Shown: positions 33,967 through 59,522, numbered from the stretch's first letter. The stretch is 64,000 nt of DNA from Myxococcota bacterium (GCA_963674735.2 CAXXQS010000002.1:1696001-1760000), one strand, 5' to 3'. Notes: generated from the sequence alone by a model not told the origin. Made by a program: numbers and translations.

Positions 33967-34506
33967 TCACTTTTTCCGTTTGATTACGTGGAATTGTCCA
34001 CTGACCCGATGTAACGCAGCGATGCCCGAATCGAATTGGTCGGGGGGAGCCGTGAAGGACAGATCATAGGTGCAATAGTTTTTAACCAGAGTATAGGCCG
34101 CCACTTTGATCGGGGCGCCGTCGAGCATGCCGGATACTTCGCTGTAGAGGGATTGACGACCGTCGATGGTAACTTCCCGTTCGGTCAAGATTTCTTTTTT
34201 CTCGATTCCGAAGAAAAGGTGTTTGTGGAGAGCGGCGACTGGGGCATCCCGATATTCGTCACAGGTCGAATTGACCATAATGAAGGCGTCTAACTGCTTG
34301 TTCCAGAATATCAAATCGCTTTTATCGGTTTCGATGCGTGTCCAATTCCGACCGGGTGATTGAGCGGTATAGACGGTTTTTTCCGTTTCCACGATTCCTT
34401 TTCGGTAGGTGGCGGTACTGCAGGCTGTCAGTCCCGAAACGAGGAAGACCGCGATCAAACATCCGGTTACAGTCCGCCTCAACCAATGATTTACTAACGC
34501 ATTCAT
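33967..34506 (-). CDS. Lipoprotein, first gene of the Mla operon
   Basis: Lipobox LTAC; 1 bp gap to mlaE. Confidence 0.75.
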   Translation of the reverse strand: MNALVNHWLRRTVTGCLIAVFLVSGLTACSTATYRKGIVETEKTVYTAQSPGRNWTRIETDKSDLIFWNKQLDAFIMVNSTCDEYRDAPVAALHKHLFFGIEKKEILTEREVTIDGRQSLYSEVSGMLDGAPIKVAAYTLVKNYCTYDLSFTAPPDQFDSGIAALHRVSGQFHVIKRKK

Positions 34507-43341: not shown

Positions 43342-44298
43342 TTATTTGAGTGCCTGGACGATGGTTGTGACATTGTGGCGGACCATGCCGATGTAGGTGC
43401 CTTCCGGCGCTCCGGCGGCTCCCATGGCATCGGAGAACAATTCACCCCCGATTCGCAGATCGTGGCCTTTGGCTTTCGATCCTTCGACCAGTGCTTCGAT
43501 GTTCTTTTTCGGGACACTCGATTCAACGAATACGGCCTTGATTCCGCGTGTCGCGATAAAGTCAATCAAGTTGTTGATATCCTTCACTCCTGCTTCGTCT
43601 TCGGTACTGATGCCCTGGATACCGCGAACCTCGATGCCATAGGCGTCGCCGAAATAACCGAAGGCGTCGTGGGCGGTGATGAGCACGCGCCGCTCTTTCG
43701 GAATGGTGTCGATTATCTGCAACACCCACTGATGCAAGTCGCGCAGGTCGGCTAAAAGCTTTTCGGTATTGGCATCGAATTGTGCCTTACGGGACGGGGC
43801 GGCGGCGGAGAGTCCGTCGCGGATACGGTCGGCCGCCAACATCCACAGGCGGACGTCGAACCAGATATGCGGATCGTGAGTCCCGGCGGAGGCCGACGTC
43901 TCGCGCAATTTGGCCGGTTCGATGCGATCGGAAACCGCGATGACGGTCTTCTTTTTCGCGAGCCGATGCAAAACATCGCCCAGTTTCCCTTCAAGGTGCA
44001 GGCCGTTGTAGAAAACCAAGTCCGCTTTGGCCAAAGCACGGATATCCGACTCCCGCGCTTTGTATTGATGCGGGTCGGTGCCGGGCCCCATCAGTCCGGT
44101 GGCAGTTACGCTTTCACCGCCGATAATGCGGACTAGGTCCGTGATCATGCCGACCGTGGAGACCACGTTCAAGGGCCCGCTTTTCTCGACGGCTTTGACG
44201 GCTTGGCCCGGTTCGGGTGTGTCGGATTTCGATTGGCAGCCGAGGGCCAGCAGACTGAGAAACAGTCCCACTGTCATCACGGTTAATCGATAGTTCAT
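43342..44298 (-). CDS. Metal ABC substrate-binding lipoprotein (TroA/MntA-like)
   Basis: Lipobox ALGC; DPHQY, NGLHLE, DPHIW, TAHDAF, SDA. Confidence 0.93.
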   Translation of the reverse strand: MNYRLTVMTVGLFLSLLALGCQSKSDTPEPGQAVKAVEKSGPLNVVSTVGMITDLVRIIGGESVTATGLMGPGTDPHQYKARESDIRALAKADLVFYNGLHLEGKLGDVLHRLAKKKTVIAVSDRIEPAKLRETSASAGTHDPHIWFDVRLWMLAADRIRDGLSAAAPSRKAQFDANTEKLLADLRDLHQWVLQIIDTIPKERRVLITAHDAFGYFGDAYGIEVRGIQGISTEDEAGVKDINNLIDFIATRGIKAVFVESSVPKKNIEALVEGSKAKGHDLRIGGELFSDAMGAAGAPEGTYIGMVRHNVTTIVQALK

Positions 44299-45076: not shown

Positions 45077-45218
45077 AAATAAAAATAAGGTCGTCTGCCT
45101 GTTGGTGATTTGGAAAACCGCTTGGCTGTTTGCCTTCATGTCGCGGTCCGAGTAGAATAGGTGCGATCGGAAATGGCGGATGCGCCGGAGTGGCGATGCG
45201 AGAAACGGAGTGGTGAGC

Positions 45219-46835
45219 ATGAACTATCCTGAAATGGCCATAATCACGAAGCTGGTGGTACTGGCTGTTTTGTGCGTGGTCGGCGTTTTTCGACTGGTCG
45301 CTCCAGCCGATCTTTATCGCCGTTTCCGGGTTTTGGTCGTGAGCGTGCTTCTGGTGTCGCTGGTTTTCGGCATTCTGGGTTTCTTTCACTATATGCATTT
45401 TCTGGGAGGGCGCTTCAACAACTACCACGATGTCTACCACTACTACTTCGGCTCCAAGTATTCGGCTGAACTCGGCTATTCCGATTTGTACAAATGCACC
45501 TTGATGGCGGAAATCGACGGCAAGGAAACGCTTTCCAGCTATTTTCTGAAATCGCAAATCCGGTTGATGGATACCTATGAACACGTGCCGGTGGAGCAGG
45601 TGCTGGACGAAGTCCGTGCCTGTAAGACGAATTTCAGCCCCGAGCGTTGGGAGCAGTTCACCACCGATCTGCGCGATTATCGGCGAATCTTCAACCTGCG
45701 TTCGATGAAAAGCCGTTTGAAAGACATGGGTTACAACGCCACTCCGGTGTGGAATATGGTGGGGAATTGGGTGGCGGATGTCGTCCCCGTGACGCGCTGG
45801 GGCTTGATCGGTCTGGGCTTGATCGATGTGGTTCTCTTGACCTTTGCCTTTGTGGTCGTCGGCTTGACCTTCGGCTTGGAGGCGGGGTTGATCACGGCGA
45901 TTTTCTTTTTAACGCTTTACCCGCTGCAGCGGCTGTTCATTCACGGTTCCATGCTGCGTTTCGATTGGATGGTGTGCATCATCCTTTCCATCTGCATGCT
46001 TAAACGTGGCTTCTACAAGCTGTCCGGCGGTTTGATGGCCTATTCGGCCATGGTGCGCGTCTTCCCAGTGCTGTTTCTGTTCGGACCGGGCGTGAAATTC
46101 CTATACATCTTGTGGAAAGAGCGCCGTGTGGACCGACGTCTTTTATCGTTGGGTCTGAGTTTCGCCGTAACGGCGGTGGTACTTGCGGGGCTTAGTATTT
46201 GGCACATGGACGGCCTGGGGCAGTGGGAGAGCTTCATTGGAAAGATTACGGTTCACAATCAAAGCCTGACCACCACACGTATCGGATTGAAATACGTGAT
46301 GATGTACGAGGGGGAGACGAGCCGTAAAGACTTCAAAAAGCTGGCTGGCAGTATGGGGTGGAACGCCTTGTTCGACCACAAGCGGGAGGTGCTGAAAGAG
46401 CGTCGGCCCGTGCAATTTGCCTTGATCGGACTGTTGGTGTTGGCGCTGGCCTTCGTTGTGCGGCGGCTAGACGATTATGAGGCTCTCGCCATCGGTTATC
46501 CCTTGATATTCTTACTACTCGGGCCGACCATCTATTATTCTCAAAGCGTGGCGGCTTTATGCATTTTGTTGGTGACGCGGCCCGGAAACAAGCTATACGC
46601 CTATAATTTCGCTGTGTTGACGGCGGTGATGTGTTTGAGCTTCGTTCTGACTCTGGCCATCCCTTGGGGACACCTGCGCCACTTCTGGGTGAGCCTGATG
46701 TACCTGGTCATGATCGTCGTGCTGCTCGGCACCTTCCTCTATGACGACCCCAAAGCCCGGTCCGTTATCGACCGACTCTTGCGGCGCAAACCCCGAACTC
46801 CGCCGATCGAGTCTCCGCCGGATTCCCTGGCATAA
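45219..46835 (+). CDS. Polytopic membrane protein, GT-C (GT87-like) glycosyltransferase-like
   Basis: About 12 TMs; DVYHYYFGSKY..ELGY..LY.C loop, DMGYNATPVW, GSMLRFDW, RVFP. Confidence 0.6.
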   Translation: MNYPEMAIITKLVVLAVLCVVGVFRLVAPADLYRRFRVLVVSVLLVSLVFGILGFFHYMHFLGGRFNNYHDVYHYYFGSKYSAELGYSDLYKCTLMAEIDGKETLSSYFLKSQIRLMDTYEHVPVEQVLDEVRACKTNFSPERWEQFTTDLRDYRRIFNLRSMKSRLKDMGYNATPVWNMVGNWVADVVPVTRWGLIGLGLIDVVLLTFAFVVVGLTFGLEAGLITAIFFLTLYPLQRLFIHGSMLRFDWMVCIILSICMLKRGFYKLSGGLMAYSAMVRVFPVLFLFGPGVKFLYILWKERRVDRRLLSLGLSFAVTAVVLAGLSIWHMDGLGQWESFIGKITVHNQSLTTTRIGLKYVMMYEGETSRKDFKKLAGSMGWNALFDHKREVLKERRPVQFALIGLLVLALAFVVRRLDDYEALAIGYPLIFLLLGPTIYYSQSVAALCILLVTRPGNKLYAYNFAVLTAVMCLSFVLTLAIPWGHLRHFWVSLMYLVMIVVLLGTFLYDDPKARSVIDRLLRRKPRTPPIESPPDSLA

Positions 46836-46947: not shown

Positions 46948-47850
46948 CTACTCCCCATCTCGTGCACAACGGAAGCCGGTTTGTTCTGTTCTTGAATCAG
47001 AAGAAGAGAATGATCGAAATGGAATAGCAACTCCACCATTTGATGTAGCCCAGGATCTGCTTTTTACAATATTCTGTACCTCATTGTAGGGCTGGACATT
47101 TTCGCATTCAGTCAACCAAGCACTACCATCGTCTGGTGCACCTTCAAATGTTAAATGGGAGCAATCCTCAACCCATTCATAAGCATTTCCTAACATATCG
47201 TAGAGGCCAAAATTATTAGGTAATTTTTCTCCAACAGGATGGGAATGATTCTCACTGTTTTCATAAATCCAGGCGATGTCGAGCAGACAGCAATCCTCAA
47301 TTTCCACATCGATGCCGCAGACCTCTTCGCCACAGTAATAGATGCCCTCTGTTCCGGCACGGGCGGCGTATTCCCATTCGGCTTCGCTGGGTAGCCGTCC
47401 TCCTACAACTTCGCAGAAAGCACGGGCGTCGTGCCAGGACACCCGTGCCACCGGGCAATCGACGCATTCATGCATCGTGTCCGCCAGCGGATTGCTTCCT
47501 ATGATCTGTTCGTACTGTGCCTGCGTGACCTCGGTGGCCATCATCTCGAAGGCTGAAACCGTGACTTGGTGAGAAGGACCATGAAAAGGCGGGCAGGTCC
47601 ACCAATTGAAATCATAAGGGTTTTCATACTCGCAACCCATCGTGAAGTTTCCGGCCGGGATCGGTGCCCAGGTAATCGATGATGGATCGTTTTCGCTATC
47701 GGCCTCAGAGTCGACCTCCGAACGATCCGACTCTTCACCTGCGACTTCGCTGTCCAGATCGCCGTCGTCTGTAGTCGACTCTGAATCGCAAGCGATGAGC
47801 GGGAACAGGAAGGCGATCAAAAGACAAGCGATGCTAGCCCTAGGTTTCAT
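46948..47850 (-). CDS. FGE-sulfatase (SUMF1) domain lipoprotein, copy A
   Basis: Lipobox LIAC; acidic linker with DDGD; TEVT, RLPSEAEWEYAARAG, FGLYDMLGN..EW, GFRCAR. Confidence 0.9.
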   Translation of the reverse strand: MKPRASIACLLIAFLFPLIACDSESTTDDGDLDSEVAGEESDRSEVDSEADSENDPSSITWAPIPAGNFTMGCEYENPYDFNWWTCPPFHGPSHQVTVSAFEMMATEVTQAQYEQIIGSNPLADTMHECVDCPVARVSWHDARAFCEVVGGRLPSEAEWEYAARAGTEGIYYCGEEVCGIDVEIEDCCLLDIAWIYENSENHSHPVGEKLPNNFGLYDMLGNAYEWVEDCSHLTFEGAPDDGSAWLTECENVQPYNEVQNIVKSRSWATSNGGVAIPFRSFSSSDSRTEQTGFRCARDGE

Positions 47851-47853
47851 GAT

Positions 47854-48753
47854 TTACTCCCCATCCCGTGCGCAACGGAAACCAATATGAGGATCACTAT
47901 CATCTAAATCCACACCACTTCGATGAACTACACTACATGAAGTTGCTGATGCCCCCCAAGATCTTCCTTTTATTACGGTGTTGCTTTGAGTATGTTTCTG
48001 GCAGTCTGTTTTCCAGGCACTGCCGTCAGTCGGGGCGCCTTCAAAAGATGGATGCCAGCAGTCCTCCATCCATTCATAGATGTTGCCCAGCGTATCGTAG
48101 AGACCGAAGGCATTGGGTTGCTTCTCTCCCACTGGATGAGTATGGTTATCGCTATTTTCTTCCACCCAGGCGATGTCGAGCAGACAGCAATCCTCAATTT
48201 CCACATCGACGCCGCAGACCTCTTCGCCACAGTAATAAAGACCTTCCGTTTCGGCACGGGCGGCGTATTCCCATTCGGCTTCGCTGGGTAGCCGTCCTCC
48301 TACAGCTTCGCAGAAAGCACGGGCGTCGTGCCAGGACACCCTTGCCACCGGGCAATCGGCACATTCGTGCATCGTGTCCGCCAGCGGATTGCTTCCTATG
48401 ACCTGTTCGTACTGCGTCTGCGTGACCTCGGTGGCCATCATCTCGAAGGCCGGAACGTTCACTTCATGAGGAGGGCTGCTTTGGGGTAAGCAGGTATTAT
48501 CGTAGATACTCCTATATTCACAGCCCATGGTGAAGCTGCCGGTGGGGATCGGTGCCCAGGTAATCGTTGATGGATCGCTTTCGTTATCGGTCTCAGAGTC
48601 AACCTCCGAACGATCCGACTCTTCACCTGCGACTTCGCTGTCCAGATCGCCGTCGTCTGTAGTCGACTCTGAATCGCAGGCGGCAAGGGCCAGCAGCAGC
48701 AGGGGCAATAGCCCACAAGCGCGCAACGGACGCATTCGGCGTATCAAGCGCAT
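47854..48753 (-). CDS. FGE-sulfatase (SUMF1) domain lipoprotein, copy B
   Basis: Lipobox LAAC; same motifs as copy A; tandem paralogue. Confidence 0.9.
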   Translation of the reverse strand: MRLIRRMRPLRACGLLPLLLLALAACDSESTTDDGDLDSEVAGEESDRSEVDSETDNESDPSTITWAPIPTGSFTMGCEYRSIYDNTCLPQSSPPHEVNVPAFEMMATEVTQTQYEQVIGSNPLADTMHECADCPVARVSWHDARAFCEAVGGRLPSEAEWEYAARAETEGLYYCGEEVCGVDVEIEDCCLLDIAWVEENSDNHTHPVGEKQPNAFGLYDTLGNIYEWMEDCWHPSFEGAPTDGSAWKTDCQKHTQSNTVIKGRSWGASATSCSVVHRSGVDLDDSDPHIGFRCARDGE

Positions 48754-49082
48754 AACAACCCCTTCCCAAGCTGAGAGATGATCGATTCAGTGGCGAGTGA
48801 GATGATTCTAGCATGCAGACTTGAACAGGTCAAGCTCTATGTGGCTCAGGTGTGTGACATGCTTCTGCGCTGGGATAGACCGCATCGTCAGCCGGATTTC
48901 CATAATAAGCCCATCGCCAAGTGGGGCTGGCTGCCGATATTCCTTGTCGTTCCGAAGGAAGCGCCTATAATATCTTCAATTTTGAAATGTTTAACGATCC
49001 GTTGACCATGGCCGCTTGTTCGGGCGGGGAATGGAACGGATATCTGGAAATTACCCTGTGCCGAACTGTTTTACGGTTGTGA

Positions 49083-49097
49083 TTGACCAACGGTCAA
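49083..49097. promoter_or_regulatory. Palindromic operator candidate
   Basis: TTGACC-AAC-GGTCAA, 75 bp upstream of the CDS at 49172. Confidence 0.4.
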
Positions 49098-49171
49098 CAG
49101 GATGCAGCCGCAGAGTTCGGTAACGACCTGCCGGTCGACCGAGTTCGGCTTGAGAAATAAAAGGAAACGCA

Positions 49172-50026
49172 ATGGTCAGGACAAAGAGTGGGATATCGGC
49201 GATCCATACGGTGGGTACGTTCATGAATGGGCGGGCATGCTCGGATACGCTTTTTCATGTGCTCAGCCGTGCATTCGACGATCCACTTGAACGTGAAGAG
49301 AAGGCGACCTCCTTATTCGCGGGTGGTATCCTGCAATATGGCTACCAGTGCGGGATGCTTTGGGGAGCGACGCTTGCCGCAGGAGCACGGACGCATCGAC
49401 GCTTGGGATCGGGACCGCGAGCCGAAGTCGAAGCGGTTGCCGAGGCACAAAGGCTTGTGGAATTATTTCGTGCTCGCAAAAACTGCATCAATTGTTTCGA
49501 AATAACGCATACCGACCGGTCATCGTCAACCTTGGAAATGATCCTGTATTTTCTTGTCAAAGGTGGAACCATCGGCTGTTTTCGTATGGCTGCGGGATAT
49601 GCATCTAAGGCATTTAACGAGCTTACGGATGGCGTGGGCGAGTTACCCGATAAAACGCTTGCTCCGCCGGTCAGTTGTGCGGCGGTCGTGGCTCGGAAGA
49701 TGGGGGCATCTGAGTTGCATCAAGGCATGGTGGCGGGATTGGCGGGGGGTATCGGACTATGCGGGGGTGGCTGTGGCGCGCTGGGAGCTGCGCTATGGAT
49801 CGTCGCGATGGATTCAGCCAAGGAAGGGATCAAGGGTAATCTCTGGAATTCAAAGCTCTTCAAATCGCGGGCCGATGAGCTGATCGATCGTTTCCTGAAG
49901 TGTTCCGGTCATGAATTCGAATGCTCCCAAATCGTTGGGCGGCAGTTTGAGAGCATCGCCGACCATGCCGCTTATCTGCATGATGGCGGTTGTTCGAAAG
50001 TGATCGAAACCTTGTCTGTACGGTGA
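49172..50026 (+). CDS. C-GCAxxG-C-C family putative redox protein, duplicated domain
   Basis: ACS...QCGMLWG...INC...GC and SCA...GCGALGA...FEC...GC. Confidence 0.75.
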   Translation: MVRTKSGISAIHTVGTFMNGRACSDTLFHVLSRAFDDPLEREEKATSLFAGGILQYGYQCGMLWGATLAAGARTHRRLGSGPRAEVEAVAEAQRLVELFRARKNCINCFEITHTDRSSSTLEMILYFLVKGGTIGCFRMAAGYASKAFNELTDGVGELPDKTLAPPVSCAAVVARKMGASELHQGMVAGLAGGIGLCGGGCGALGAALWIVAMDSAKEGIKGNLWNSKLFKSRADELIDRFLKCSGHEFECSQIVGRQFESIADHAAYLHDGGCSKVIETLSVR

Positions 50027-50163
50027 TCAACTTGAAAAACGTGATACGCGCTGGATTGCAAGATCAATACAACGGTTTGATTTCATTTGAGAAAATACGA
50101 TAAATGTGCTAATTTTGATAGAAATCTAAATGACTTCCGCTACATAAACCACAGGATACCGAT

Positions 50164-51996
50164 ATGAAACCTGTTTTTGTAATTGGAGTGCTAGGATTGT
50201 TTCTGTCTTTTGCCATCGGTTGCGATGGAGATGATTCCACAACGGGGATCAATACCGATGGCGATGCGATCGACGGCGACTTGACCGACGGTGACCTGAC
50301 GGACGGTGACCTGACGGACGGTGACCTGACCGATGGCGACCTGGATGACGATCCCGTTGATATCGATGAATGGAACGCGGCAAGCGAGTTTACGGTTGTC
50401 GAGATTGACCCGAATGTCTCGGCTACATTCCAGCTGGCGGTACAAGCCTGTGCCGGTTTGTATAATCGCGAGCTCGGCGGCTCCATTTACGTCAAAATGG
50501 AAACCAAAGATCAGCAATGGCTGGATGAACTCGATCTGGAGCCAAAGAACGTCATCAATGCCCTTGACTTCCTCGATGCATGTGTTGCCAAGTTTCCTTC
50601 CTGCCTGCGCTATTCCTACGACGACCAGAGGCTGGCAATGCCAAGCATCCTGACCATCGCTTCTGTGCTGGGAGCGGTGCCCCTGGATATGGGGATGAAC
50701 ACCTCCTGCGGCGAAGTCACGTTCGATGCCACCACCGAACTGGCGAACAAAGACACCCCCTATCTTGCCACGCAGTATGTCTTCGAGAACTACGCCGAGC
50801 AGACCACCGGCCTGGCCATGCTCAACCCCGGATACGAAATCTGGGAAAACAATACGGACAACCCCGTACTTACACGGGATATGCCCCCTTCTCTGGTTGA
50901 TTTCGTGTTTTCCCAAAAACTGTTCGCCCTATTTCTGACAAACGGCTGCCGAGACGAGAATCCCGAGAAGGAACTTTTGCACGCAATCGTCAACGCCGGT
51001 CACTGGCAGACACCGCTCGGCGTTTACGGTTACAACAATTCATGGATGGTCATGGGTGGCTTTTTCTACGAGGCTCAAACCCAATGCCTGGATTCCCGCA
51101 ACATGGGCGCCATCCCCACCGAAACAAGCAATCTATCATTCTTCTCCACCCGGCGACCGCCGATCCGGGAGGCGAGCGAACTCGAACGAAACGAGACGGA
51201 GGACATCGAATACGATCCGACCAAGACCTATGTTGCCTTCGTGATCGGCGACGGTGACAACGTCGCCTTCATCATGAGCACGCGCAACGTTTGGCTTCGT
51301 CAACGGCTGGCGGATTGCGAGAAAACGGACAATTCCTGTGCGCCTATCACCTGGAGCATTTCGCCGCATCTCTCCTATCTCGCGCCCGACGTGCTTAAAT
51401 GGTACCACAAGAAGACCCGCCAGACCGGCAAGGACTACTTTACCCTCCCGCCTAGCGGACACCTTTACGCCTATCCCACTTCGCTGAACGAAGAAGATCA
51501 GAATCGCTTTGTTACGGCGACGGAAGAAGACGCCCGCCTCCTTGGCATCCACGGAACCGTGCACTGGGACTGGATGGGTACCTGGGAAGACGCAGAAAAC
51601 CTCTTCTTGCCCAAATACGCCAAGACCGACGGCGTCATTCGCGGCGTGTTTCCCGTCAATGTGCCGTATATGTTCGAGGCTTTCCCGTGGTGGTCGGACG
51701 ACCAATTCTTTAAGGTACTCGCCGGTAAAGATGGCGGTGAGGTGGCGGTGTTCCGGCCGCGCGAGTGGCGGGGGATCGACAACGACGACGACCCCTTCTT
51801 TCAGAGCCCACAGAAGATGGCCGAAGAACTGGGTAGCTATCCTCCTGGCACAGTTACGTGGGTGTACATGACCAGCGATGGGGGACTAAGTCTCGAAAAT
51901 TCGTTCATGGAATTAGTCAAGATCCTGCCTTCCCACGTCCAACTCGTGAGTGCGGATACGGCGGCTAGACTGGCGCTGAGCGTGAGTCGCAACTGA
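50164..51996 (+). CDS. Lipoprotein with a (DGDLT)n tether and a GxGYxYP-family putative glycoside hydrolase domain
   Basis: Lipobox AIGC; VAFVIGDGDN, PITWSISP, PPSGHLYAYP. Confidence 0.75.
   Translation: MKPVFVIGVLGLFLSFAIGCDGDDSTTGINTDGDAIDGDLTDGDLTDGDLTDGDLTDGDLDDDPVDIDEWNAASEFTVVEIDPNVSATFQLAVQACAGLYNRELGGSIYVKMETKDQQWLDELDLEPKNVINALDFLDACVAKFPSCLRYSYDDQRLAMPSILTIASVLGAVPLDMGMNTSCGEVTFDATTELANKDTPYLATQYVFENYAEQTTGLAMLNPGYEIWENNTDNPVLTRDMPPSLVDFVFSQKLFALFLTNGCRDENPEKELLHAIVNAGHWQTPLGVYGYNNSWMVMGGFFYEAQTQCLDSRNMGAIPTETSNLSFFSTRRPPIREASELERNETEDIEYDPTKTYVAFVIGDGDNVAFIMSTRNVWLRQRLADCEKTDNSCAPITWSISPHLSYLAPDVLKWYHKKTRQTGKDYFTLPPSGHLYAYPTSLNEEDQNRFVTATEEDARLLGIHGTVHWDWMGTWEDAENLFLPKYAKTDGVIRGVFPVNVPYMFEAFPWWSDDQFFKVLAGKDGGEVAVFRPREWRGIDNDDDPFFQSPQKMAEELGSYPPGTVTWVYMTSDGGLSLENSFMELVKILPSHVQLVSADTAARLALSVSRN
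50257..50346 (+). repeat. 15-bp coding tandem repeat, 6 units of DGD[AL][ITD]
   Basis: gacggtgacctgacg-type units. Confidence 0.9.
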
Positions 51997-52095
51997 GTTA
52001 GGGTTGTCCGTTGCAAGCGGTAGCGTGATCCAACGTGCTTCGACGATTGGCACGACTTCGTTGATCGGGTACTGGAAATCGTAAATAACTGCCAT

Positions 52096-52130
52096 AAAAA
52101 CAGCCACTTGACCAAAATGCCAAGTGGCTG
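52096..52130 (-). terminator. Terminator downstream of tRNA-His
   Basis: CAGCCACTTG...CAAGTGGCTG 10-bp stem followed by TTTTT on the - strand. Confidence 0.7.
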
Positions 52131-52137
52131 AAATTAT

Positions 52138-52215
52138 TGGGGTGGGTGATGGGATTTGAACCCACGGCCTCCAGGGCCACAACCTAGCGCTCTAACCAAC
52201 TGAGCTACACCCACC
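52138..52215 (-). tRNA. tRNA-His(GTG)
   Basis: G(-1)GTGGGTG acceptor, TAGCTCAGTTGGTTAGAGC D-arm, anticodon loop TTGTGGC, GGTTCAAATCC T-arm, encoded CCA. Confidence 0.97.
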
Positions 52216-52251
52216 ATACCAAAGGTCCGCCTCCAAAGCAGGCGAGACGGT

Positions 52252-52280
52252 ATAATGGCGAACCGCGTCGCGTTTGTCAA
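52252..52280 (-). promoter_or_regulatory. sigma70-type promoter of tRNA-His
   Basis: TTGACA-N17-CATTAT on the - strand. Confidence 0.6.
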
Positions 52281-52487
52281 GATTTCTTGCAGCTAAAAAA
52301 GTCATTCATCCGTTAAACAACCACTTGAGCGAATCCCGACCGCCGGTTTGAGTCACCCGGCGGGCGAACCGAATTTGAACATCGATAATAGGATTCTAAC
52401 TTGAGATCTGGTTGCAACTTTGCACAATGCCCCTAGCGTTGACAATCGGTTTGAAACGCCCAATCAATCAACCTGCGAGGTGGTCGG

Positions 52488-54140
52488 ATGAACAAGCAGA
52501 TCTTCCTGATGTTACTGATGTTGTTGGCGATAGCCATTTCGACGGCTGGATTGAGTGGTTGCAACGAAAGCGACGGCGATACGCCCGACGGCGACTCACC
52601 CGACGGTGACGCACCCGATGGCGATACACCCGATGGCGACGCACCTGACGGCGACGCACCTGACGGCGACGCGCCCGACGGCGATACACCCGATGGCGAC
52701 GCACCTGACGGCGACGCGCCCGACGGCGATGCCCCTCACTGGCCCGATTGCGATTTATCGGCGAGCACGCAGGCGATCACCTTCATTCATATCAACGATC
52801 TGCACTCGGAATACACACCCGATCCGGCCTTCGACAATGAAAGTCCCGTGAGTCGTTTGCGTGGCTATTTCGAACAGGTGAAGGCCGAACAGCCCTTTAC
52901 CCTTTTTACCGATGGGGGAGACGATCACGAGAAAGGGTCGGTGGCCGAGCCGCTTTCAGACGGCTACAGCACCACCGAAATCGTTCACGCCATGGGGTTC
53001 GATGTGCGTGTCATCGGCAACCATGATTTTGCCTGGGGACCGGAAGAGGTGATGGCCTTCTCGCGTGATCCCCATGCTTTGGTCCTGGCCAGCAATACCA
53101 CCTATGATGGTCCGAATCCTGAAGACTGGTGGGCGGTTTCCTACGGAGAACGCAAAGTCGGTTGTGTGACCATTGGCTTTTTTGGAATGGCTCCCAAGCC
53201 CTATAACGCCAACAACCAATCCTACGCAGGTGATTACTACCCCGGCGGCGATTTTCACACTGATCACGACTATCCGGCGGTGGCTGCGGCCATCGTCCAG
53301 GCGCATCGCGCCGATGTGGATTTGATGGTGATGGTCAGCCATTTGGGAAATGGAACCGATGCAGACATCGCTGCTGCCGTTCCCGGAATCGACGTGATTC
53401 TGGGCGGACATTCGCACACGACTCTTTATCAGGAGGATAGGGTCGGTGAGACCGTTATTGTGCAGGCTGGTTCCAACGCCCTGTGGGCGGCGCATCTGGA
53501 TCTGACCGTCGACCTGGAAAATGGCGGGGTGGCCGACTACAACTATTCCCTCAACATGAACATGTCCGGAACCATGCCGGTGGACGAGACCGTACAAACG
53601 GCAGTGGAGACCACTATGCTGGAATATGCGCCGGAGGCCAATGATCCGGTCGCCATGGTGGTTGCAAATCGCAACGAGGCACAAGTCGCCGCGATCACGG
53701 CCCAGGCGGCAGTGGAAACGCTATCGGCGGATGCTGCAGTTGTGATCGTCGATGAAGTGTGGGCGACCTGGTCTTCTGGACCGCTGACTCAGCAAAAAAT
53801 GTTGAATACCTACAAAATAGAGCGTCAACCTGCCGGGTCGCCGGGCTTCAACAGTTTTTACACGGTCAGCTTGAGCGGCGATCAGCTTCAGGCAATCCGC
53901 GATCATCTGGATGACGGCTATGCTTGCGTCGTTCCCGGCGATATCGAGGCGGGAACGACCTATACCTTGGCCATACAAAAAATGCTTGCGTTCAATCCGG
54001 ATCTCTATCTCCCGGTGGGAACCGTGATGTCGGAACCGGTTTTCGCCATGGAAGCTTGGGAGTTGCTGGATACCTATGGCCGAGCCCGCACGCAGGCCGG
54101 TCTGTATATCGATGTGGAAGAAGCGTTGATGGCTTTGTAA
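52488..54140 (+). CDS. Lipoprotein with a (DGDxP)11 tether and a 5'-nucleotidase-like metallophosphoesterase
   Basis: Lipobox LSGC; INDLH, DGGD, GNHDF, SHLG, GGHSH motifs. Confidence 0.88.
   Translation: MNKQIFLMLLMLLAIAISTAGLSGCNESDGDTPDGDSPDGDAPDGDTPDGDAPDGDAPDGDAPDGDTPDGDAPDGDAPDGDAPHWPDCDLSASTQAITFIHINDLHSEYTPDPAFDNESPVSRLRGYFEQVKAEQPFTLFTDGGDDHEKGSVAEPLSDGYSTTEIVHAMGFDVRVIGNHDFAWGPEEVMAFSRDPHALVLASNTTYDGPNPEDWWAVSYGERKVGCVTIGFFGMAPKPYNANNQSYAGDYYPGGDFHTDHDYPAVAAAIVQAHRADVDLMVMVSHLGNGTDADIAAAVPGIDVILGGHSHTTLYQEDRVGETVIVQAGSNALWAAHLDLTVDLENGGVADYNYSLNMNMSGTMPVDETVQTAVETTMLEYAPEANDPVAMVVANRNEAQVAAITAQAAVETLSADAAVVIVDEVWATWSSGPLTQQKMLNTYKIERQPAGSPGFNSFYTVSLSGDQLQAIRDHLDDGYACVVPGDIEAGTTYTLAIQKMLAFNPDLYLPVGTVMSEPVFAMEAWELLDTYGRARTQAGLYIDVEEALMAL
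52572..52736 (+). repeat. 15-bp coding tandem repeat, 11 units of DGD[TSA]P
   Basis: gacggcgacgcaccc-type units. Confidence 0.95.
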
Positions 54141-54161
54141 AACGACGCCTTGAAAAAATAA

Positions 54162-54195
54162 ATGGCCGATCCAAGCGGGTCGGCCGTCTTTTTTT
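54162..54195. terminator. Bidirectional intrinsic terminator
   Basis: ATGGCCGATCC-AAGC-GGGTCGGCCGT flanked by an A-run and a T-run, between convergent genes. Confidence 0.8.
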
Positions 54196-54216
54196 CAAAG
54201 AAAAAGCGTGTTCGGC

Positions 54217-55290
54217 TCAGTCGGCGGCTTTCCACCCGAACCAGGTGAGGAACGGCAATCCCGCGCCGGTGGCGGTTTCGATACCTTGACCGGATGACGC
54301 GACTTCGGCGTTCTGAATCAAAGCCCACTCGCCTTCCATGACCGGTTCATCGTCCCAGGTGTAGGTGGCGACGCTGCCGAGACCGTATATCAGGACGTCG
54401 CTACCGGCCGCCAGACCGGTCGTATTCTCGATCCATACATGCACGGCATCGGGGTCGTGCACTTCCACCTCGGGTGCAACGGTGAAGAGTTGTGCGGGTG
54501 GGTCGGCCGGATCGATAAAGCAGGGCCAGCCCCAGGCGTCGGCGTCCCACTCCATCAGGTTGATATCGGCATAGCCGCCCTCCAACGGAGTCAGATCTTC
54601 GGGAATGACGGTCAACATCGAGTCGCCGGAGAGGTGCATCGCGTGTTCCGTTGCCGGATCGTCCAGCGGGTCGCGAAGCGATTCGGGGACGGCAGGCAGT
54701 TTGAAGGCGGTGCTTGTATCGACGTTACCCCCGCTTCCGAGATCGATGGGACAGGACAGCGAAATGCGGCCGGTCAGCTCCACCGGCAGGAAACGAATCG
54801 CCGAATGCTGGAGGCATTGCTGTGCTTCGGGGACCAGCACCTGGTAACGGCCGTTATCGTCGGTGAAAACGGGGCGCAAGCAGGCGCCTTGGTTGTCCGG
54901 TCCGATTATGCAGGCAAAAACGCTGACATCCACCAGCGGGTCGTCGTTTTCGTCCACCACCAAGCCTGATAGCGAGGTGACGCGTACGCCATCGCAACTC
55001 GGGTCGTCGCCATCGGGGGTGTCGCCATCCGGGTCGTCGCCGTCGGGATCGTCACCATCGGGGTCGTCACCATCGGGTTCGTCGCCGTCGGGCTCGTCGC
55101 CGTCGGGGTTGTCGCCATCCGGGTTGTCGCCATCCGGGTTGTCGCCGTCGGGATTGTCGCCGTCGGGGTTGTCGCCATCCGGATTGTCGCCGTCAGTGCT
55201 GTCGTCGCTTCCACAGGCGGTTCCAAGTGCGAGTAAAACGATCAGGAACAGGAAAAACAAGGCAGATTGCAGGGCGTGTCGGTTGTGCAT
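54217..55290 (-). CDS. Lipoprotein with a (DGDxP)13 tether and a carboxypeptidase-regulatory-like beta-sandwich
   Basis: Lipobox GTAC; LSGLVVDENDDPLVDVSV...TDDNGRYQV. Confidence 0.8.
   Translation of the reverse strand: MHNRHALQSALFFLFLIVLLALGTACGSDDSTDGDNPDGDNPDGDNPDGDNPDGDNPDGDNPDGDEPDGDEPDGDDPDGDDPDGDDPDGDTPDGDDPSCDGVRVTSLSGLVVDENDDPLVDVSVFACIIGPDNQGACLRPVFTDDNGRYQVLVPEAQQCLQHSAIRFLPVELTGRISLSCPIDLGSGGNVDTSTAFKLPAVPESLRDPLDDPATEHAMHLSGDSMLTVIPEDLTPLEGGYADINLMEWDADAWGWPCFIDPADPPAQLFTVAPEVEVHDPDAVHVWIENTTGLAAGSDVLIYGLGSVATYTWDDEPVMEGEWALIQNAEVASSGQGIETATGAGLPFLTWFGWKAAD
55000..55194 (-). repeat. 15-bp coding tandem repeat, 13 units of DGD[NEDT]P
   Basis: gacggcgacaacccc-type units. Confidence 0.95.
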
Positions 55291-55307
55291 GAATGCTTCT
55301 CCAAAAT

Positions 55308-55338
55308 AAAAACCGGCGCACCAAAGAGGCTACGCCGG
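55308..55338 (-). terminator. Intrinsic terminator between two co-directional lipoprotein genes
   Basis: CCGGCGTA...TGCGCCGG-TTTTT on the - strand. Confidence 0.6.
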
Positions 55339-55357
55339 ACCGTTTTTTTATCCGTTT

Positions 55358-57028
55358 TTACAGCTCGCCGTCGGCGGCTTCAGCCTCAACGACTTCCAAC
55401 TCGGTTTCATCTTCGGTCATCTCAGCTTCGGCGATATCGCCATCCGTTTCATCCTCGGTTGATTCGGCTTCCATCTCGTCTTCCGTTCCGTCGCCATCCA
55501 CTTCGGCGTCCGTGTCGCCATCGACAACCGGGTCCATGTTGTCTTCCGCGATTCCGATATAATCGAAGGGCGGTAGAGGATTGTCGCCGAGTTCTTGAAT
55601 CAGCTTCATGTCCGACATGCGGATGGCCGATACCCAAGGGATGCCGCTGAACATTTCGGAGTAGAAGATCACGGGGAAACCGGCCGTGTTGTCGTGGTCG
55701 GAAATGCGGATACCCTTTTCGCAGCCATAGCCATCCATGAGCCCGTCGGCGTATTCGGCGTCGGAATCACGTCCGGCGGCGTCTTGTCCGATCACGTAGA
55801 GAAGCTGGGATTGACGCGCGATCAGTTCCTCTTCCAGTCCGCCATCGTTGCAAACGCGCTGGCGGAACAAGTCGCGACACGCCGGGCACCAGCCGGCGCC
55901 GACGAAGACGAAAAGGGTTTTGATTTCGGGGTGGTCGCAGCGGTACTGAGCCAGATCGAGGCCCACATCCTGGCCTTTGTAATAGGCGCTGGGCCATTCC
56001 ATCGGCGGAACGACTCCCGGCTCCGGATTGCTCTGGCCGGGTGACGGGCCCATGAAATGATAGGGACCATCCGGGTAGTCGCAGGTTGTGTCGGTGGGTT
56101 TTTCCATGTCCACATAGCCCGGCTCGGTGATGGCATCGAGGAACGTTTTATCTCCGAGGCACCATTGCCAGCCGTCTTCGACCGGTGTGGTATAGCCATT
56201 GCTGGTTTTGATCGTGACTTCCTGCAGGTTGAGGTCGGTGAATGAACCGCCGAAGGGTTCCTTGAGCGCTTTCCCCAACTCGGTGAAGCTGACCGTCGCA
56301 CCGGCGATGGGCATGAAGCTGCGTGCGCAGGTCAGGGTGCCGGAACTACCGATGTTGCAGGCCTGTTGCACGGTAATGCAGGTGCTGCAGGTGGCCATGC
56401 TGGTATCGGCTTCCGCGATGGTGAAGGTGGTAGGACTTTGCGGCCCGCCTTTGTCGCCCTTGATCACGACTGTCAGAACATCCACCGGATAGGCGCTTTT
56501 GTTGTAAACGGTATAGGTCCAGGTGGCGAGGTCGGTTTCGTCGTCGACCTCCACTTCCGCCCGTTGGCTGCGGGTGACGAAGCCTTCTTTGTCACAGGGG
56601 TTGTCATCATCGCCGTCGGGATCGTCGCCGTCGGGATCGTCACCGTCTGAGTTGTCACCGTCGGGATCATCGCCATCGGGGTCGTCGCCATCGGAAGCAT
56701 CGCACAGGCAATCGAAGTTGCCGGTAGAGGTCATGCCGCAGCCGACGGCTTGAACACCCAGCGCCATGCAGGCCATGTTGCAGTTTTTGACTTTCCATTC
56801 GCCGAATTCGCAGGCACACAGGTTGCTTCCCATACAATAGCCGCCGGTGGTTGCATCGGCACAAGAGCCTTCACAGGCCGGTTCGTCGCCATCGCCGTCG
56901 GAACTGTCTCCGTCTTCGGTGTCGCCATCCGACGATGATCCGTCGGATTCATTGCAGCCACTTGCCGCGAAGACGATCAGGGAAAGGGCCAGCATGGCGA
57001 TCAGCGTCCAGATCTGTGTGCGTTTCAT
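55358..57028 (-). CDS. Multi-domain lipoprotein: DGD linkers, Cys-rich module, beta domain, CxxC redoxin-like domain, acidic tail
   Basis: Lipobox ASGC; 10-Cys module; FVGAGWCPAC; three DGD-rich segments. Confidence 0.8.
   Translation of the reverse strand: MKRTQIWTLIAMLALSLIVFAASGCNESDGSSSDGDTEDGDSSDGDGDEPACEGSCADATTGGYCMGSNLCACEFGEWKVKNCNMACMALGVQAVGCGMTSTGNFDCLCDASDGDDPDGDDPDGDNSDGDDPDGDDPDGDDDNPCDKEGFVTRSQRAEVEVDDETDLATWTYTVYNKSAYPVDVLTVVIKGDKGGPQSPTTFTIAEADTSMATCSTCITVQQACNIGSSGTLTCARSFMPIAGATVSFTELGKALKEPFGGSFTDLNLQEVTIKTSNGYTTPVEDGWQWCLGDKTFLDAITEPGYVDMEKPTDTTCDYPDGPYHFMGPSPGQSNPEPGVVPPMEWPSAYYKGQDVGLDLAQYRCDHPEIKTLFVFVGAGWCPACRDLFRQRVCNDGGLEEELIARQSQLLYVIGQDAAGRDSDAEYADGLMDGYGCEKGIRISDHDNTAGFPVIFYSEMFSGIPWVSAIRMSDMKLIQELGDNPLPPFDYIGIAEDNMDPVVDGDTDAEVDGDGTEDEMEAESTEDETDGDIAEAEMTEDETELEVVEAEAADGEL
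56603..56692 (-). repeat. 15-bp coding tandem repeat, 6 units of DGD[DN][PSD]
   Basis: Internal inter-domain linker DGDDPDGDDPDGDNSDGDDPDGDDPDGDDD. Confidence 0.9.
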
Positions 57029-57315
57029 GAAATATCCTTTAGCATCGGTTGTCGTTACATGGGGGTCGATCAGCTTGCGCGGGTACGTATAAGGCGATGG
57101 TGCTCACCTCGGAACCCGGGGCGCTGTTCGTCTTTGTTTGCAATTTTAATTGCGGTCTTTAATGTGAAAGCTCCGTGACAAGCTTGTCGCACCTTGTCCA
57201 CACAAAGCGGCAAAGACTATTTGATAACCCACACGGTGTGATTTGTCAATGCCGATTGCCGGATAAGCGTGCAAGAATCGAGGGTTAAAACCTAGATATC
57301 CGTCGGAATGCTGGG

Positions 57316-57759
57316 TTAGTCGGCGGTTTCATCCGGATTTTCGGGCTCCGTACTTTCGGCTTCCGGCTGTGTTTCTTCTGCCGTTTGTTCAGGTTGCTGC
57401 TCGATTTCCAGTGACTTGACCGACGGTCCCGGAGCGGGCAGGGGCGGTGTGTAGGGTGTCGTGAAGGGCAGATCGGTTTCCGTTACGGCATCCGGGGGAT
57501 CGACTTTGCCCAGACCTTGTTCCGGCGGCGACCATTTTTCCCAGTTATTGGCCACATTATCGGCTCCGCCGGCCATTTCACCCACGGCGATGCTCGAAGC
57601 CGCTTTTCTATCGTGGGGATTGGGCAGGCTCTCGGCCCGTTCCTGCTTGGCCTTGTAGGCGCGGTAGTTCCGCTCGTGGCCGTCGTTGGCGTAGGTGGCA
57701 CAGGCGCTCAAACCGAAAACGACGGAAACGACGATGATCATCCGGCGTAGCATGGCCAC
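57316..57759 (-). CDS. Small Pro/Glu-rich lipoprotein
   Basis: Lipobox LSAC; AAGGAGG RBS. Confidence 0.75.
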   Translation of the reverse strand: MAMLRRMIIVVSVVFGLSACATYANDGHERNYRAYKAKQERAESLPNPHDRKAASSIAVGEMAGGADNVANNWEKWSPPEQGLGKVDPPDAVTETDLPFTTPYTPPLPAPGPSVKSLEIEQQPEQTAEETQPEAESTEPENPDETAD

Positions 57760-57840
57760 CTCCTTGGAATGGCGTTCAACACATTTTTATTATACCGTGC
57801 TACGGAAAGAAAACAAGATCGGGATGCGAAAGAAGGGGGC

Positions 57841-58014
57841 AACCTCACCCATCCGCCGTTCCGTCGCTGCCGCGAACACGGGAGGAAAATATCTCACCCA
57901 CCCGCTTGGCGGACCTCTTTCATATTGTGGAGGGGCGATTTCGTTCGCCGTTAAACGGCGAACCCTTTCCACCCTGCAATACGGGGAGGGAGCGAAGCTT
58001 CGCCGGGAGGGGTT
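57841..58014. repeat. Degenerate REP-like palindromic cluster
   Basis: CTCACCCA(T/C)CCGC twice, a perfect inverted repeat GTTCGCCGTT-A-AACGGCGAAC (57943-57963), and an oppositely oriented GGGGAGGG-AGCGAAGCTTCGC-CGGGAGGGG. Confidence 0.45.
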
Positions 58015-58190
58015 GTCCAACTCAATTGCCGCCATTTCCTCACACATCGGACATTATTTTAAATATCTCTACCATCATTGCTTTTAAGCTGCCTGATTCG
58101 TGATGATGCGCTTTACCATGGATTTCTTTAATCCATGAACGCCCTTTGCAAACCTGGTCATGGTGTTCGAGTCCAAAGTCTTGCAAAACG

Positions 58191-58217
58191 AAAACACCCC
58201 GGCCGAAACCGGGGTGC
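58191..58217 (-). terminator. Intrinsic terminator after the hydrolase gene
   Basis: CACCCCGG-TTTCGG-CCGGGGTG-TTTT on the - strand. Confidence 0.75.
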
Positions 58218-58241
58218 GAGTTGTTCAATCTGAAATGTACT

Positions 58242-59522
58242 TTACTCGGCGCTTTTTCTTTCGATGGTGATCGCCGGGGTGGTGGCCAGGTAGTCGTCCT
58301 CGAAGTATTTCCAGTAGCGTTCATCCTGGTTGACGAAGATGTTCAGATAGGCGGTCGTGGCGGTGTTGATCAGACCATAGGCGAGATCGGGATCGGTGAA
58401 ACCGGTTCCACACCCGTATTCGGGAAGGTTGAGAATCTCGCACATGTTGGAGAACGTGAAGTGCCCCGCTCCTTCCAGCTCCCAGTAAATCGTGTCGGGG
58501 TGAGTGGCGTGTTCGAAGAAGGGGTAGACTTCCGAGACCGCCGGGATGGTGTCGTCCAATTCGCCTGCCATCAGCAGCATGGGGACGTCGATGGCTTCGA
58601 TTTCGCCTTCTTTAAATACCGCTTGCAGGGCCGGACACATGGGTACCGAGACCAGGATGCGGTCGTCTTTGAAACTACAGGGCGTGCAGTCCTCCGCATA
58701 GGACATGTCGGCGTCTTCCAGCATATCCTCGCAAAAACGCCAGCCGCCGGTCCAGTTTTCTTCGCCCAATTCCTCGCATTTATCAAGGAAATCGTTCATG
58801 TCGAAGGCTGGGCCTAACACGGCGATGACGGAGTAAGCGCCGAAACTGTGGCCGGTAGCGCCGATGCGGGCCGGGTCGATTTTACCTTCGAGCATATGGC
58901 CGGAGGTGGTGTTCCATTCCAAGAGCGTATCGATCATCAGCGATAGATCCTGTGGACGGTCCAAGGCGCTTTTCACCAGGTATTTGTCATCCTGGGTCCC
59001 GGTGGTGTCTTCGATGTGATCGCAGGCGGCAACGATGAAACCGTGGGTGGTCAGGTATTCGGTGAGGAAGTAGCTCTGGGCGTCGAAACTCTGGTGGCCG
59101 TGGGAGAAGACGATCAGTGGAAATGGCCCGGGGGTTTCCGTCAACGGAGCGTCTTCGATGGCGCTGCCGAGTGGGATAACACCCTGATAATACATGATAT
59201 CACCTTCCGATTGATCGGTTGGATACCAAACCGTGCCGGTCAGGTCGCGCCCGCGCGCGGCATCGACGAAGCGAGTGGAAAAGGCGCCGACGTGATAGGG
59301 ACCGGGATCTTCGGCGGGCAGGAATTCCGGTTCGTCGCCGTCCGGGTCATCGCCATCGGGTTCGTCGCCGTCGGGGTCATCACCGTCGGGATCATCACCG
59401 TCGGGGCTGTCGCCATCCGGGTTGTCGCCATCGGTCGGCGCTGTTTCGTCATCGGACCCGCAGGCCGATAGCGCGAATAATAACAAAGCGATCGAGCATC
59501 CGATTATCCACTTTCGCAACAT
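58242..59522 (-). CDS. Lipoprotein with a (DGDxP)7 tether and an alpha/beta hydrolase (PAF-acetylhydrolase/dienelactone hydrolase-like)
   Basis: Lipobox LSAC; VWYP, FPLIVFSHG, GHSFG nucleophile elbow, GELDD, AGHFTF. Confidence 0.88.
   Translation of the reverse strand: MLRKWIIGCSIALLLFALSACGSDDETAPTDGDNPDGDSPDGDDPDGDDPDGDEPDGDDPDGDEPEFLPAEDPGPYHVGAFSTRFVDAARGRDLTGTVWYPTDQSEGDIMYYQGVIPLGSAIEDAPLTETPGPFPLIVFSHGHQSFDAQSYFLTEYLTTHGFIVAACDHIEDTTGTQDDKYLVKSALDRPQDLSLMIDTLLEWNTTSGHMLEGKIDPARIGATGHSFGAYSVIAVLGPAFDMNDFLDKCEELGEENWTGGWRFCEDMLEDADMSYAEDCTPCSFKDDRILVSVPMCPALQAVFKEGEIEAIDVPMLLMAGELDDTIPAVSEVYPFFEHATHPDTIYWELEGAGHFTFSNMCEILNLPEYGCGTGFTDPDLAYGLINTATTAYLNIFVNQDERYWKYFEDDYLATTPAITIERKSAE
59328..59432 (-). 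repeat. 15-bp coding tandem repeat, 7 units of DGD[NSDE]P
   Basis: gatggcgacaacccg-type units. Confidence 0.95.

Follow-up and report, generated by a model that had tools for sequence, protein, structure and literature searches.

Introduction

In Escherichia coli, about half of the outer-membrane lipoproteins carry a disordered linker after the lipid-modified Cys, and the linkers of RcsF, NlpD, and Pal are needed for trafficking by the Lol pathway (10.1101/2021.01.05.425367). In Bacteroidota, a lipoprotein export signal (LES) of the form CS(D/E)2 or K-(D/E)2 has been described; in Bacteroides, CS(D/E)2 is necessary for display at the surface and packing into vesicles, and the lipoproteins found in vesicles are hydrolases, whereas those retained in the outer membrane are without the motif (PMC6222051). 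How lipoproteins are chosen for the cell surface in Gram-negative bacteria outside Bacteroidota is still largely an open question. Here we analyze a stretch of 64,000 nucleotides from the genome of an uncultured member of Myxococcota (the window), in which positions 46948 to 59522 encode seven lipoproteins with an acidic tether containing the tripeptide Asp-Gly-Asp (DGD), expanded in five of them into tandem pentapeptides, (DGDxP)n.

Two further systems are known from the same phylum. In Myxococcus xanthus, Lys at position +2 marks lipoproteins of the inner membrane and Ala at +7 those of the matrix, and no consensus is reported for outer-membrane lipoproteins (PMC3222651). The C-terminal MYXO-CTERM tag targets TraA and other M. 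xanthus proteins to the surface of the cell. Cleavage by myxosortase takes place behind its invariant Cys, for which lipidation is predicted, and the type II secretion system exports the tagged proteins (PMC11980579). In that text, the words "linker" and "acidic" occur 0 times. Our literature searches brought up no prior description of DGD repeats or acidic tethers on myxobacterial lipoproteins, and the DGD tether is a lineage-specific, apparently undescribed form of the usual lipoprotein tether.

Results and discussion

The DGD tag is found genome-wide, on about half of the predicted lipoproteins

The genome that contains the window (G000) comprises 5.26 Mb in three contigs. Genes were called crudely, by codon log-odds and greedy removal of overlaps, which gave 3810 genes at 89% coding density; type II signal peptides (SPII) were predicted with a home-made lipobox pattern and a hydrophobicity filter, and type I signal peptides (SPI) with equally crude rules. 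On this basis 520 lipoproteins are predicted, or 13.6% of the 3810 genes, which is several times the usual Gram-negative proportion. Applied to reversed proteins as a control, the lipobox rule made 6 calls in 3810. A lipoprotein was counted as tagged if it has a DGD within 30 residues of the anchor Cys, as is the case for 252 of the 520, or at least three tandem units. By this definition 265 of the 520 are tagged: 99 in class A, with at least three tandem DG[DS]xx units, and 166 in class B, with a DGD within 30 residues of the Cys but outside class A. The other 255, with neither an array nor a near DGD, form class C.

The original prediction, made from the sequence of the window alone, called the tag selective and named DGD repeats of equal abundance in non-lipoprotein and cytoplasmic proteins among the observations that would speak against it. 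The density of DGD is 27.1 per 1000 residues in the first 100 mature residues of lipoproteins, 2.2 in the remainder of these proteins, 3.5 in the first 100 residues of the crudely predicted SPI proteins, and 0.35 in signal-less proteins, so this refuting condition does not apply and the motif is specific to the tethers of lipoproteins. In a six-frame scan of the genome, 123 open frames were found to contain a total of 132 arrays with three or more tandem DG[DS]xx units, mostly located less than about 100 residues from the start of the frame. Tandem units occur in 22 of the 3290 genes outside the predicted lipoproteins, and about 12 of these 22 show a lipobox missed by our pattern. The tag is also portable and payload-independent, as had been proposed: when the tethers were removed, 98 class A payloads fell into 81 BLAST groups, 71 of them singletons.

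The idea that the seven window genes constitute a local array or system has to be given up, as the tag is found on 265 lipoproteins throughout the genome. With seven of nine consecutive genes tagged, the window does contain the genome's densest cluster, a density above chance (2 of 500 label shuffles reach seven), and two further sites reach six of nine. The cluster is not conserved as a unit: the orthologues of two of its members, the all-β protein at 54217-55290 and the α/β hydrolase at 58242-59522, lie 1.86 Mb apart on the single contig of the related genome G004 and on different contigs in G003. The seven genes are therefore a local aggregation of a genome-wide class and not a system.

Anatomy of the tether and selection on Asp-Gly-Asp

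With the Cys as reference, the tagged proteins show G, S, or N at +2 and G, S, or D at +3, then D from +4 to +6; the position of the first DGD has a median of +11 (interquartile range 10-14). Over residues +2 to +41, the median net charge amounts to −16 for class A, −14 for class B, and −3 for class C, and the linker is composed of 33% D, 17% G, and 9% P. In class A, the longest array per protein comprises 6 units in the median and 20 at most, and the last DGD of an array-bearing protein lies a median of 82 residues from the Cys. In 58 of the 99 class A proteins the array starts within 30 residues of the Cys, and in 31 at least four Cys, belonging to small Cys-rich modules, lie between anchor and array. 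DGD arrays also serve as inter-domain linkers. The Cys-rich modules are of the CxxDxDCxxGxxC type (residues about 50-110 of the window protein at 55358-57028 are an example); Cu-binding_MopE, DUF7107, or Dicty_CTDC is matched by some of them.

A protein-blind search of the entire genome with Tandem Repeats Finder returned 570 arrays, of which 545 have a period that is a multiple of three. DGD is encoded in some frame by 318 of these 545, at periods of 4, 5, 6, 7, 8, and 9 residues; the constant feature is thus the tripeptide and not its spacing. In-frame arrays of a second class, whose periods are 18 and 24 nucleotides, are made up of (Val-Glu)n and (Glu-Pro)n repeats.

For 116 merged arrays of period 15, containing 540 units, each codon position was compared with the consensus of its own array. 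In the codons for D, G, and D, 0.4-3% of units deviate at positions 1 and 2, and 21-26% at position 3. For the x codon, the figure is 17-26% at all three positions, and for the P codon it is 9%, 4%, and 19% at positions 1, 2, and 3. Because homogenization by slippage would affect all positions alike, this pattern reveals purifying selection on Asp-Gly-Asp and weaker purifying selection on Pro, while the spacing, the x residue, and the copy number drift or expand. Furthermore, selection acts on Asp itself and not on Glu: the tethers contain 1313 DGD as against 65 DGE, 28 EGD, and 30 EGE, with Glu making up 8.5% and Asp 21% of tether residues. The arrays thereby illustrate clearly how, in a low-complexity linker, purifying selection can hold on to a tripeptide and leave copy number and spacing free.

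These data also bear on the notion that the arrays have no function and arose by neutral replication slippage in DNA rich in GAY-GGN-GAY, tolerated in disordered exported segments. In keeping with it, the arrays are DNA tandem repeats with higher-order periods, copy number and spacing vary freely among orthologues, and perfect arrays occur in few genomes only. However, the excess of changes at third codon positions largely refutes this explanation, and it fits poorly with the near absence of Asp-to-Glu exchanges, with a motif density 8 times higher in lipoprotein tethers than in the crudely predicted SPI N-termini, and with the fact that the motif was not found on the sampled housekeeping-type lipoproteins (see below). 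We therefore consider it highly improbable.

An AlphaFold2 model was computed for the 54217-55290 protein from a seven-sequence alignment with six homologues. Residues 25-95, which hold the 13-unit array, have a predicted local distance difference test (pLDDT) score of 34-47 per 10-residue block, with every residue below 50 and no DSSP element, while payload residues 100-357 form a confident all-β structure, mostly at pLDDT 80-97. The tether is thus predicted by the model to be unstructured right after the +1 Cys. Searched alone, the tether had no Pfam match even at E≤10 (two tethers) and matched no solved structure. An EF-hand identity was rejected on the same Pfam search, and identity with the pentapeptide repeat proteins (PF00805, a right-handed quadrilateral β-helix) was rejected for lack of a Pfam match and on the low-confidence coil predicted by AlphaFold2.

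In being disordered immediately after the lipid-modified Cys, independent of the payload, and present on about half of the lipoproteins, the tether resembles the E. coli linkers (10.1101/2021.01.05.425367). It differs in being a polyanionic tandem repeat with a selected tripeptide, in being much longer (the 82 residues given above), and in occurring at C-terminal anchors as well. Moreover, Pal-, NlpD-, and OmpA-type proteins carry linkers in E. coli, whereas the tag was not found on these types in our annotated sample.

A preference for Asp over Glu, and for Gly between the Asp residues, would be expected if the primary role of the DGD beads were to bind divalent cations, either as a Ca2+-stiffened rod or through a Ca2+/Mg2+ bridge to lipopolysaccharide (LPS), exopolysaccharide, an S-layer, or mineral, with the enzymes fixed in the matrix. 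The charge of −16 in class A is in line with such a role, as is the commonest unit, DGDDP (208 of 540, followed by DGDTP with 47 and DGDEP with 43), which generates D-x-D-x-D strings. Such strings resemble the first half of EF-hand and DxDxDG loops. On the other hand, x is often T, A, or S, which interrupts the strings, and a DGD spacing of 4 to 9 residues is ill-suited to a regular rod. AlphaFold2, which does not model ions, predicts no structure, and no Ca2+-binding family, TSP_3 and EF-hand included, matches the tether. We consider this primary role unlikely. A comparison with thrombospondin type 3 (TSP3) repeats, for which Ca2+ binding is known, had also been drawn originally. Both are rich in Asp and Gly, but period and motif differ, as does the absence of Cys from the DGD tether, and PF02412 was not matched at E≤0.01 by whole proteins or at E≤10 by two tethers, so the array is not a TSP3 repeat.

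Tagged and untagged lipoproteins differ in their payloads

Payloads were annotated in 39 regions of 20 kb, centered on 13 random genes per class, which together contain 103 of the 520 lipoproteins (58 tagged and 45 untagged). A Pfam family was matched at E≤1e-5 by 30 of the 58 tagged and 20 of the 45 untagged proteins. The expectation that the tag would sit on scavenging-type enzymes agrees with the 14 degradative hydrolases among the 30 annotated tagged proteins: two lipases, three GH5, a GH88, a pectin acetylesterase, a Peptidase_C10, an α/β hydrolase, an amidohydrolase, a purple acid phosphatase, a Metallophos, an Exo_endo_phos, and a GDPD. One arylsulfotransferase and three FGE-sulfatase domains were also annotated, and 12 of the 30 have repeat, adhesin-like, or unknown domains (FG-GAP, β-helix, Chlam_PMP, Ig-like, WD40, ice-binding-like, MopE, EGF, Dicty_CTDC, DUF5122, and DUF2961). 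Hydrolases account for 2 of the 20 annotated untagged proteins (Fisher p 0.012). Conversely, housekeeping types make up 11 of these 20 (six TPR, two OmpA, LysM + M23, SLT + TPR, and Peripla_BP_2) and 0 of the 30 tagged proteins (Fisher p 4.5e-6). The housekeeping lipoproteins have short, non-acidic N-termini.

One payload group of the BLAST clustering consists of 64 lipoproteins (15 of class A, 30 of class B, and 19 of class C) and includes both FGE-sulfatase proteins of the window. Either the FGE-sulfatase domain, or the Cys-rich modules that chain the group together, is greatly expanded in this lipoproteome.

The same linker adjoins C-terminal anchors

The MYXO-CTERM model TIGR03901 has 16 matches in the genome, 14 of them over the cut-off. 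All 16 have DGD within 200 residues upstream (74 in 3200 residues, or 23 per 1000), and in most the acidic DGD linker abuts the GGGC motif. MYXO-CTERM is a C-terminal tripartite tag cut by myxosortase, whereas the seven window proteins, none of which is among the 16 matches, use the N-terminal lipobox route; the likeness is that a lipid-modified Cys anchors a surface protein and that this Cys is flanked, in the genome studied here, by the same DGD linker. Three DGD-array tails that look MYXO-CTERM-like by eye did not reach E≤0.01 with TIGR03901 and were not counted. Outside the window, at C2:1862882-1867691 (minus strand of G000), a single frame of 1602 codons has a MYXO-CTERM-like tail (SGC..., a hydrophobic helix, and RRK) and continues, with no stop in between, into another hydrophobic segment and a DGD-tethered lipobox Cys. 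From its sequence, this frame may represent two genes in one frame or a fusion, and the Arg-Lys cluster of the tail could double as the n-region of the next signal peptide.

The position of the linker at either end of the protein is important for judging whether the tag is an address. The acidic head, C-[GS]-[GS]-D-D, could together with the first DGD form a LES-like sorting signal, the repeats being expansions of that signal, and a machine that reads it, such as the type II secretion system, a Bam-type route, or an unknown flippase, would direct the proteins to the surface or to vesicles. The genome encodes LolA and two GspD secretins over cut-off. Of the 265 tagged proteins, 138 have at least two D/E at +3 to +6, as do 56 of the 255 untagged ones; K/R at +2 to +6 occurs in 16 of the 265 and 83 of the 255. 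The maximum of D at +4 to +6 after G, S, or N at +2 and G, S, or D at +3, the narrow range of the first DGD (+10 to +14), and the retention of the CGSDD head in order-level orthologues are all what a signal would lead one to expect, and the split between hydrolases and housekeeping proteins parallels that between vesicle and retained lipoproteins in Bacteroides (PMC6222051).

Nevertheless, only about half of the tagged proteins have an acidic head at +3 to +6; in 31 of 99 cases, intervening Cys-rich modules place the array far away from the Cys; and an N-terminal address could have no effect at the other sites of the DGD linker, before MYXO-CTERM anchors and between domains. We identified no candidate reader. 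Slam/DUF560 (PF04575) had no match in the genome, but the control genomes were equally silent, which makes this result uninformative. The signals described for M. xanthus, +2 Lys and +7 Ala, are different (PMC3222651). As for LES itself, the likeness lies in acidic residues just after the Cys, present on hydrolases that would face outward and missing from lipoproteins that would face the periplasm. The D maximum is however at +4 to +6 rather than at +3/+4, the tag continues as a long DGD stalk, and the host belongs to Myxococcota and not to Bacteroidota. Because the linker adjoins the lipid-modified Cys at either end, and because arrays also lie between domains, we read the array as an anchor-proximal stalk rather than an N-terminal address, and regard a sorting signal as rather unlikely.

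A polyanionic stalk as the favored role

We propose that (DGDxP)n probably acts as an anchor-proximal polyanionic stalk on surface-displayed, lipid-anchored proteins, an explanation we favor with some confidence. It would be the form that the N-terminal lipoprotein linker takes locally, with a motif of its own: a segment, intrinsically disordered and highly anionic, between the lipid-modified Cys and the folded domain of envelope-anchored proteins. The tagged proteins would be exposed on vesicles or on the outward side of the outer membrane, where the polyanionic, Pro-punctuated chain would hold the enzyme several nanometers off the membrane and the LPS and keep it soluble, and the Asp pairs would probably bind Ca2+ or Mg2+ weakly. 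The Ser-Asp repeats of the staphylococcal Sdr and Clf proteins are comparable, as they form an acidic low-complexity stalk from anchor to functional domain and are encoded by slippage-prone DNA. They differ from the DGD stalk in belonging to Gram-positive LPXTG proteins, in being dipeptide repeats with no Gly or Pro, and in being glycosylated.

Several points weigh against the proposal. The strict Asp-Gly-Asp, with Asp and not Glu, exceeds the needs of a spacer and hints at a specific ligand or reader. Surface exposure is argued from the payload types and the MYXO-CTERM parallel, and that the TPR lipoproteins face the periplasm is an assumption; some tagged payloads, such as 5'-nucleotidase-like and phosphatase proteins, are periplasmic in other bacteria. 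The annotation covers 103 of the 520 lipoproteins, and half of these 103 have no Pfam hit; the gene, SPII, and SPI predictions come from crude home-made rules.

A bolder and less probable alternative, which we put forward tentatively, is that one family, probably of Myxococcota, has evolved an acidic surface code of its own, independently of the LES of Bacteroidota. Some 270 proteins would be destined for the surface or for vesicles by DGD beads beside a lipidated Cys at one end or the other, and a specific partner, either a secretion component or Ca2+-bridged LPS, would read these beads. If true, such a code would explain the strict conservation of Asp-Gly-Asp and would cleanly separate enzymes that face outward from housekeeping lipoproteins that face inward.

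Returning to the stalk, the tag tracks the class of payload and recurs beside an anchor type that has already been shown to be surface-directed, and it offers a simple annotation rule for predicting exo-facing enzymes in the family. With about 520 lipoproteins (14% of genes), half of them tagged, the genome is a clean natural data set.

Distribution and evolution of the arrays

Relatives were searched at the DNA level for a pattern of four DGD units joined by xP, in 41 genomes including G000. Overlapping matches numbered 280 in G000, 135 in G004, 21 in G001, and 4 in G003. The remaining two genomes of the family (86% and 79% complete) had no four-unit match, and neither did four others from the same order. 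When the search was widened to 401 genomes of the phylum, the 391 not yet accounted for gave two singletons, one of them in a genome where the reversed control also matched. A five-DGD pattern, searched in one genome for each of 185,579 species with G000 excluded, matched 36 stretches: 10 in one Myxococcota bacterium, 4 in Myxococcales bacterium SURF_8, 1 in another Myxococcales, and 21 single or double matches, mostly in Actinomycetota, these last counted at the DNA level regardless of reading frame. Taken with the 14 MYXO-CTERM matches over the cut-off, this distribution assigns the genome to Myxococcota. Long arrays are limited to a single family, which probably belongs to Myxococcota.

Two metagenome proteins, P0011 (CotH-family) and P0014 (Ig-like repeat), have only the lipobox and the DGD-array tether in common with the 54217-55290 query; there must therefore be further array-bearing organisms outside the species-representative genomes. 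The stretch is present in three DNA contig runs of one study, and no RNA run containing it was found. In these DNA runs every array interrupts the contig, and numerous foreign contigs with arrays accumulate at the same places.

The orthologues of the α/β hydrolase form a gradient. In five of five family genomes they have a lipobox and an acidic tether with several irregular [T/I/V]DGD but never a perfect array; in G006, G007, and G009, related at the level of the order, the tethers are acidic and of the CGSDD or CGSSS type with 0 or 1 GDGD; and the orthologue from another family of the phylum lacks a tether and has an SPI signal. For the 54217-55290 protein, the orthologues follow the same gradient, the most distant member having a DTG/DAG-type tether. 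These sequences suggest a likely history in which an order-wide acidic tether was followed by family-wide enrichment in DGD and then by species-level expansion into pentapeptide arrays. In G002, the α/β hydrolase orthologue (locus L080) has a repeat of the (Val-Glu)n/(Glu-Pro)n class in place of the DGD stretch.

The seven window lipoproteins and their neighbors

The seven lipobox open reading frames (ORFs) lie within 12.6 kb exactly where they had been placed, and the strings following the Cys are as they had been quoted. All seven N-termini read as a basic n-region, a hydrophobic core, and a lipobox Cys whose lipidation is predicted, and all seven are recognized by a G+LPP-like SPII pattern combined with the hydrophobicity filter. 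The previously reported unit counts of the five arrays (6, 11, 13, 6, and 7) are exact. At the DNA level, these arrays are period-15 tandem repeats with 78-89% matches. The seven genes, and three untagged lipoprotein genes of the window that served as comparators, are as follows:

46948..47850, minus strand: FGE-sulfatase lipoprotein (PF03781, E 5e-43); class B, tether CDSESTTDDGD and an acidic D/S/E stretch without a tandem array
47854..48753, minus strand: tandem FGE-sulfatase paralogue (PF03781, E 6.5e-49); class B, same tether head CDSESTTDDGD and same BLAST group as the preceding protein
50164..51996, plus strand: GxGYxYP_C-domain lipoprotein (Pfam); tether CDGDDSTTGINTDGD then 6 DGDxx units, array at DNA 50271-50343
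52488..54140, plus strand: metallophosphoesterase / 5'-nucleotidase superfamily lipoprotein; CNESDGD, that is CNES then 11 DGDxP units, array at DNA 52571-52729 with an additional 60-nucleotide higher-order period
54217..55290, minus strand: lipoprotein with all-β payload; CGSDDSTDGD, that is CGSDDST then 13 DGDxP units, array at DNA 55001-55191
55358..57028, minus strand: Cys-rich/WCPAC lipoprotein; CNESDGS, no family match, second array at DNA 56606-56703
58242..59522, minus strand: α/β hydrolase (PETase / PAF-AH like) lipoprotein; tether string CGSDDETAPTDGD, CGSDDETAPT then 7 DGDxP units, array at DNA 59326-59434
57316..57759, minus strand: untagged small lipoprotein within the cluster
43342..44298, minus strand: untagged ZnuA/TroA-type binding lipoprotein (PF01297, E 7e-82), class C
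33967..34506, minus strand: untagged lipoprotein adjoining MlaE and an ABC ATPase

The TroA-type, Mla-associated, and 57316 lipoproteins were correctly described as being without the tag. The payloads of the seven are indeed unrelated, with two FGE-sulfatase domains and the others each different, although two of the assignments need qualification. For the protein at 52488..54140, the Metallophos match in Pfam is sound, but the 5'-nucleotidase/SoxB matches in NCBIfam are below cut-off; a search of genome contigs found no relative of this protein. The carboxypeptidase-regulatory-like sandwich assigned to the protein at 54217..55290 has a sub-threshold CarboxypepD_reg match, and the description fits at the level of the fold: the first domain of the payload has weak structural similarity (Foldseek E 1e-4 to 4e-3) to sandwiches of the transthyretin, CnaB, and carboxypeptidase-regulatory types. 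This protein has only 6 true homologues among 5.8 billion proteins.

The protein at 55358..57028 is composed of CNES and 4 DG[DS]xx, a Cys-rich module, a second array of 6 units, a WCPAC payload, and an acidic C-terminal tail. The CxxC motif attributed to it can be read directly as WCPAC. It matches no Pfam or NCBIfam family and has no significant sequence match in the PDB, the best being tryparedoxin at E 0.74.

A 551-residue polytopic membrane protein is encoded directly beside the tagged cluster (45180-46835, plus strand); it belongs to no Pfam or NCBIfam family, its Nramp match being sub-threshold only. Finally, the ORFs at 54863-55309 (plus strand), 50109-50486 (minus strand), and 54906-55226 (minus strand) were rejected as genes. 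They are shadows of the DGD arrays, read in other frames or on the opposite strand, and encode repeats of the SPSGS or TATTRMA type.

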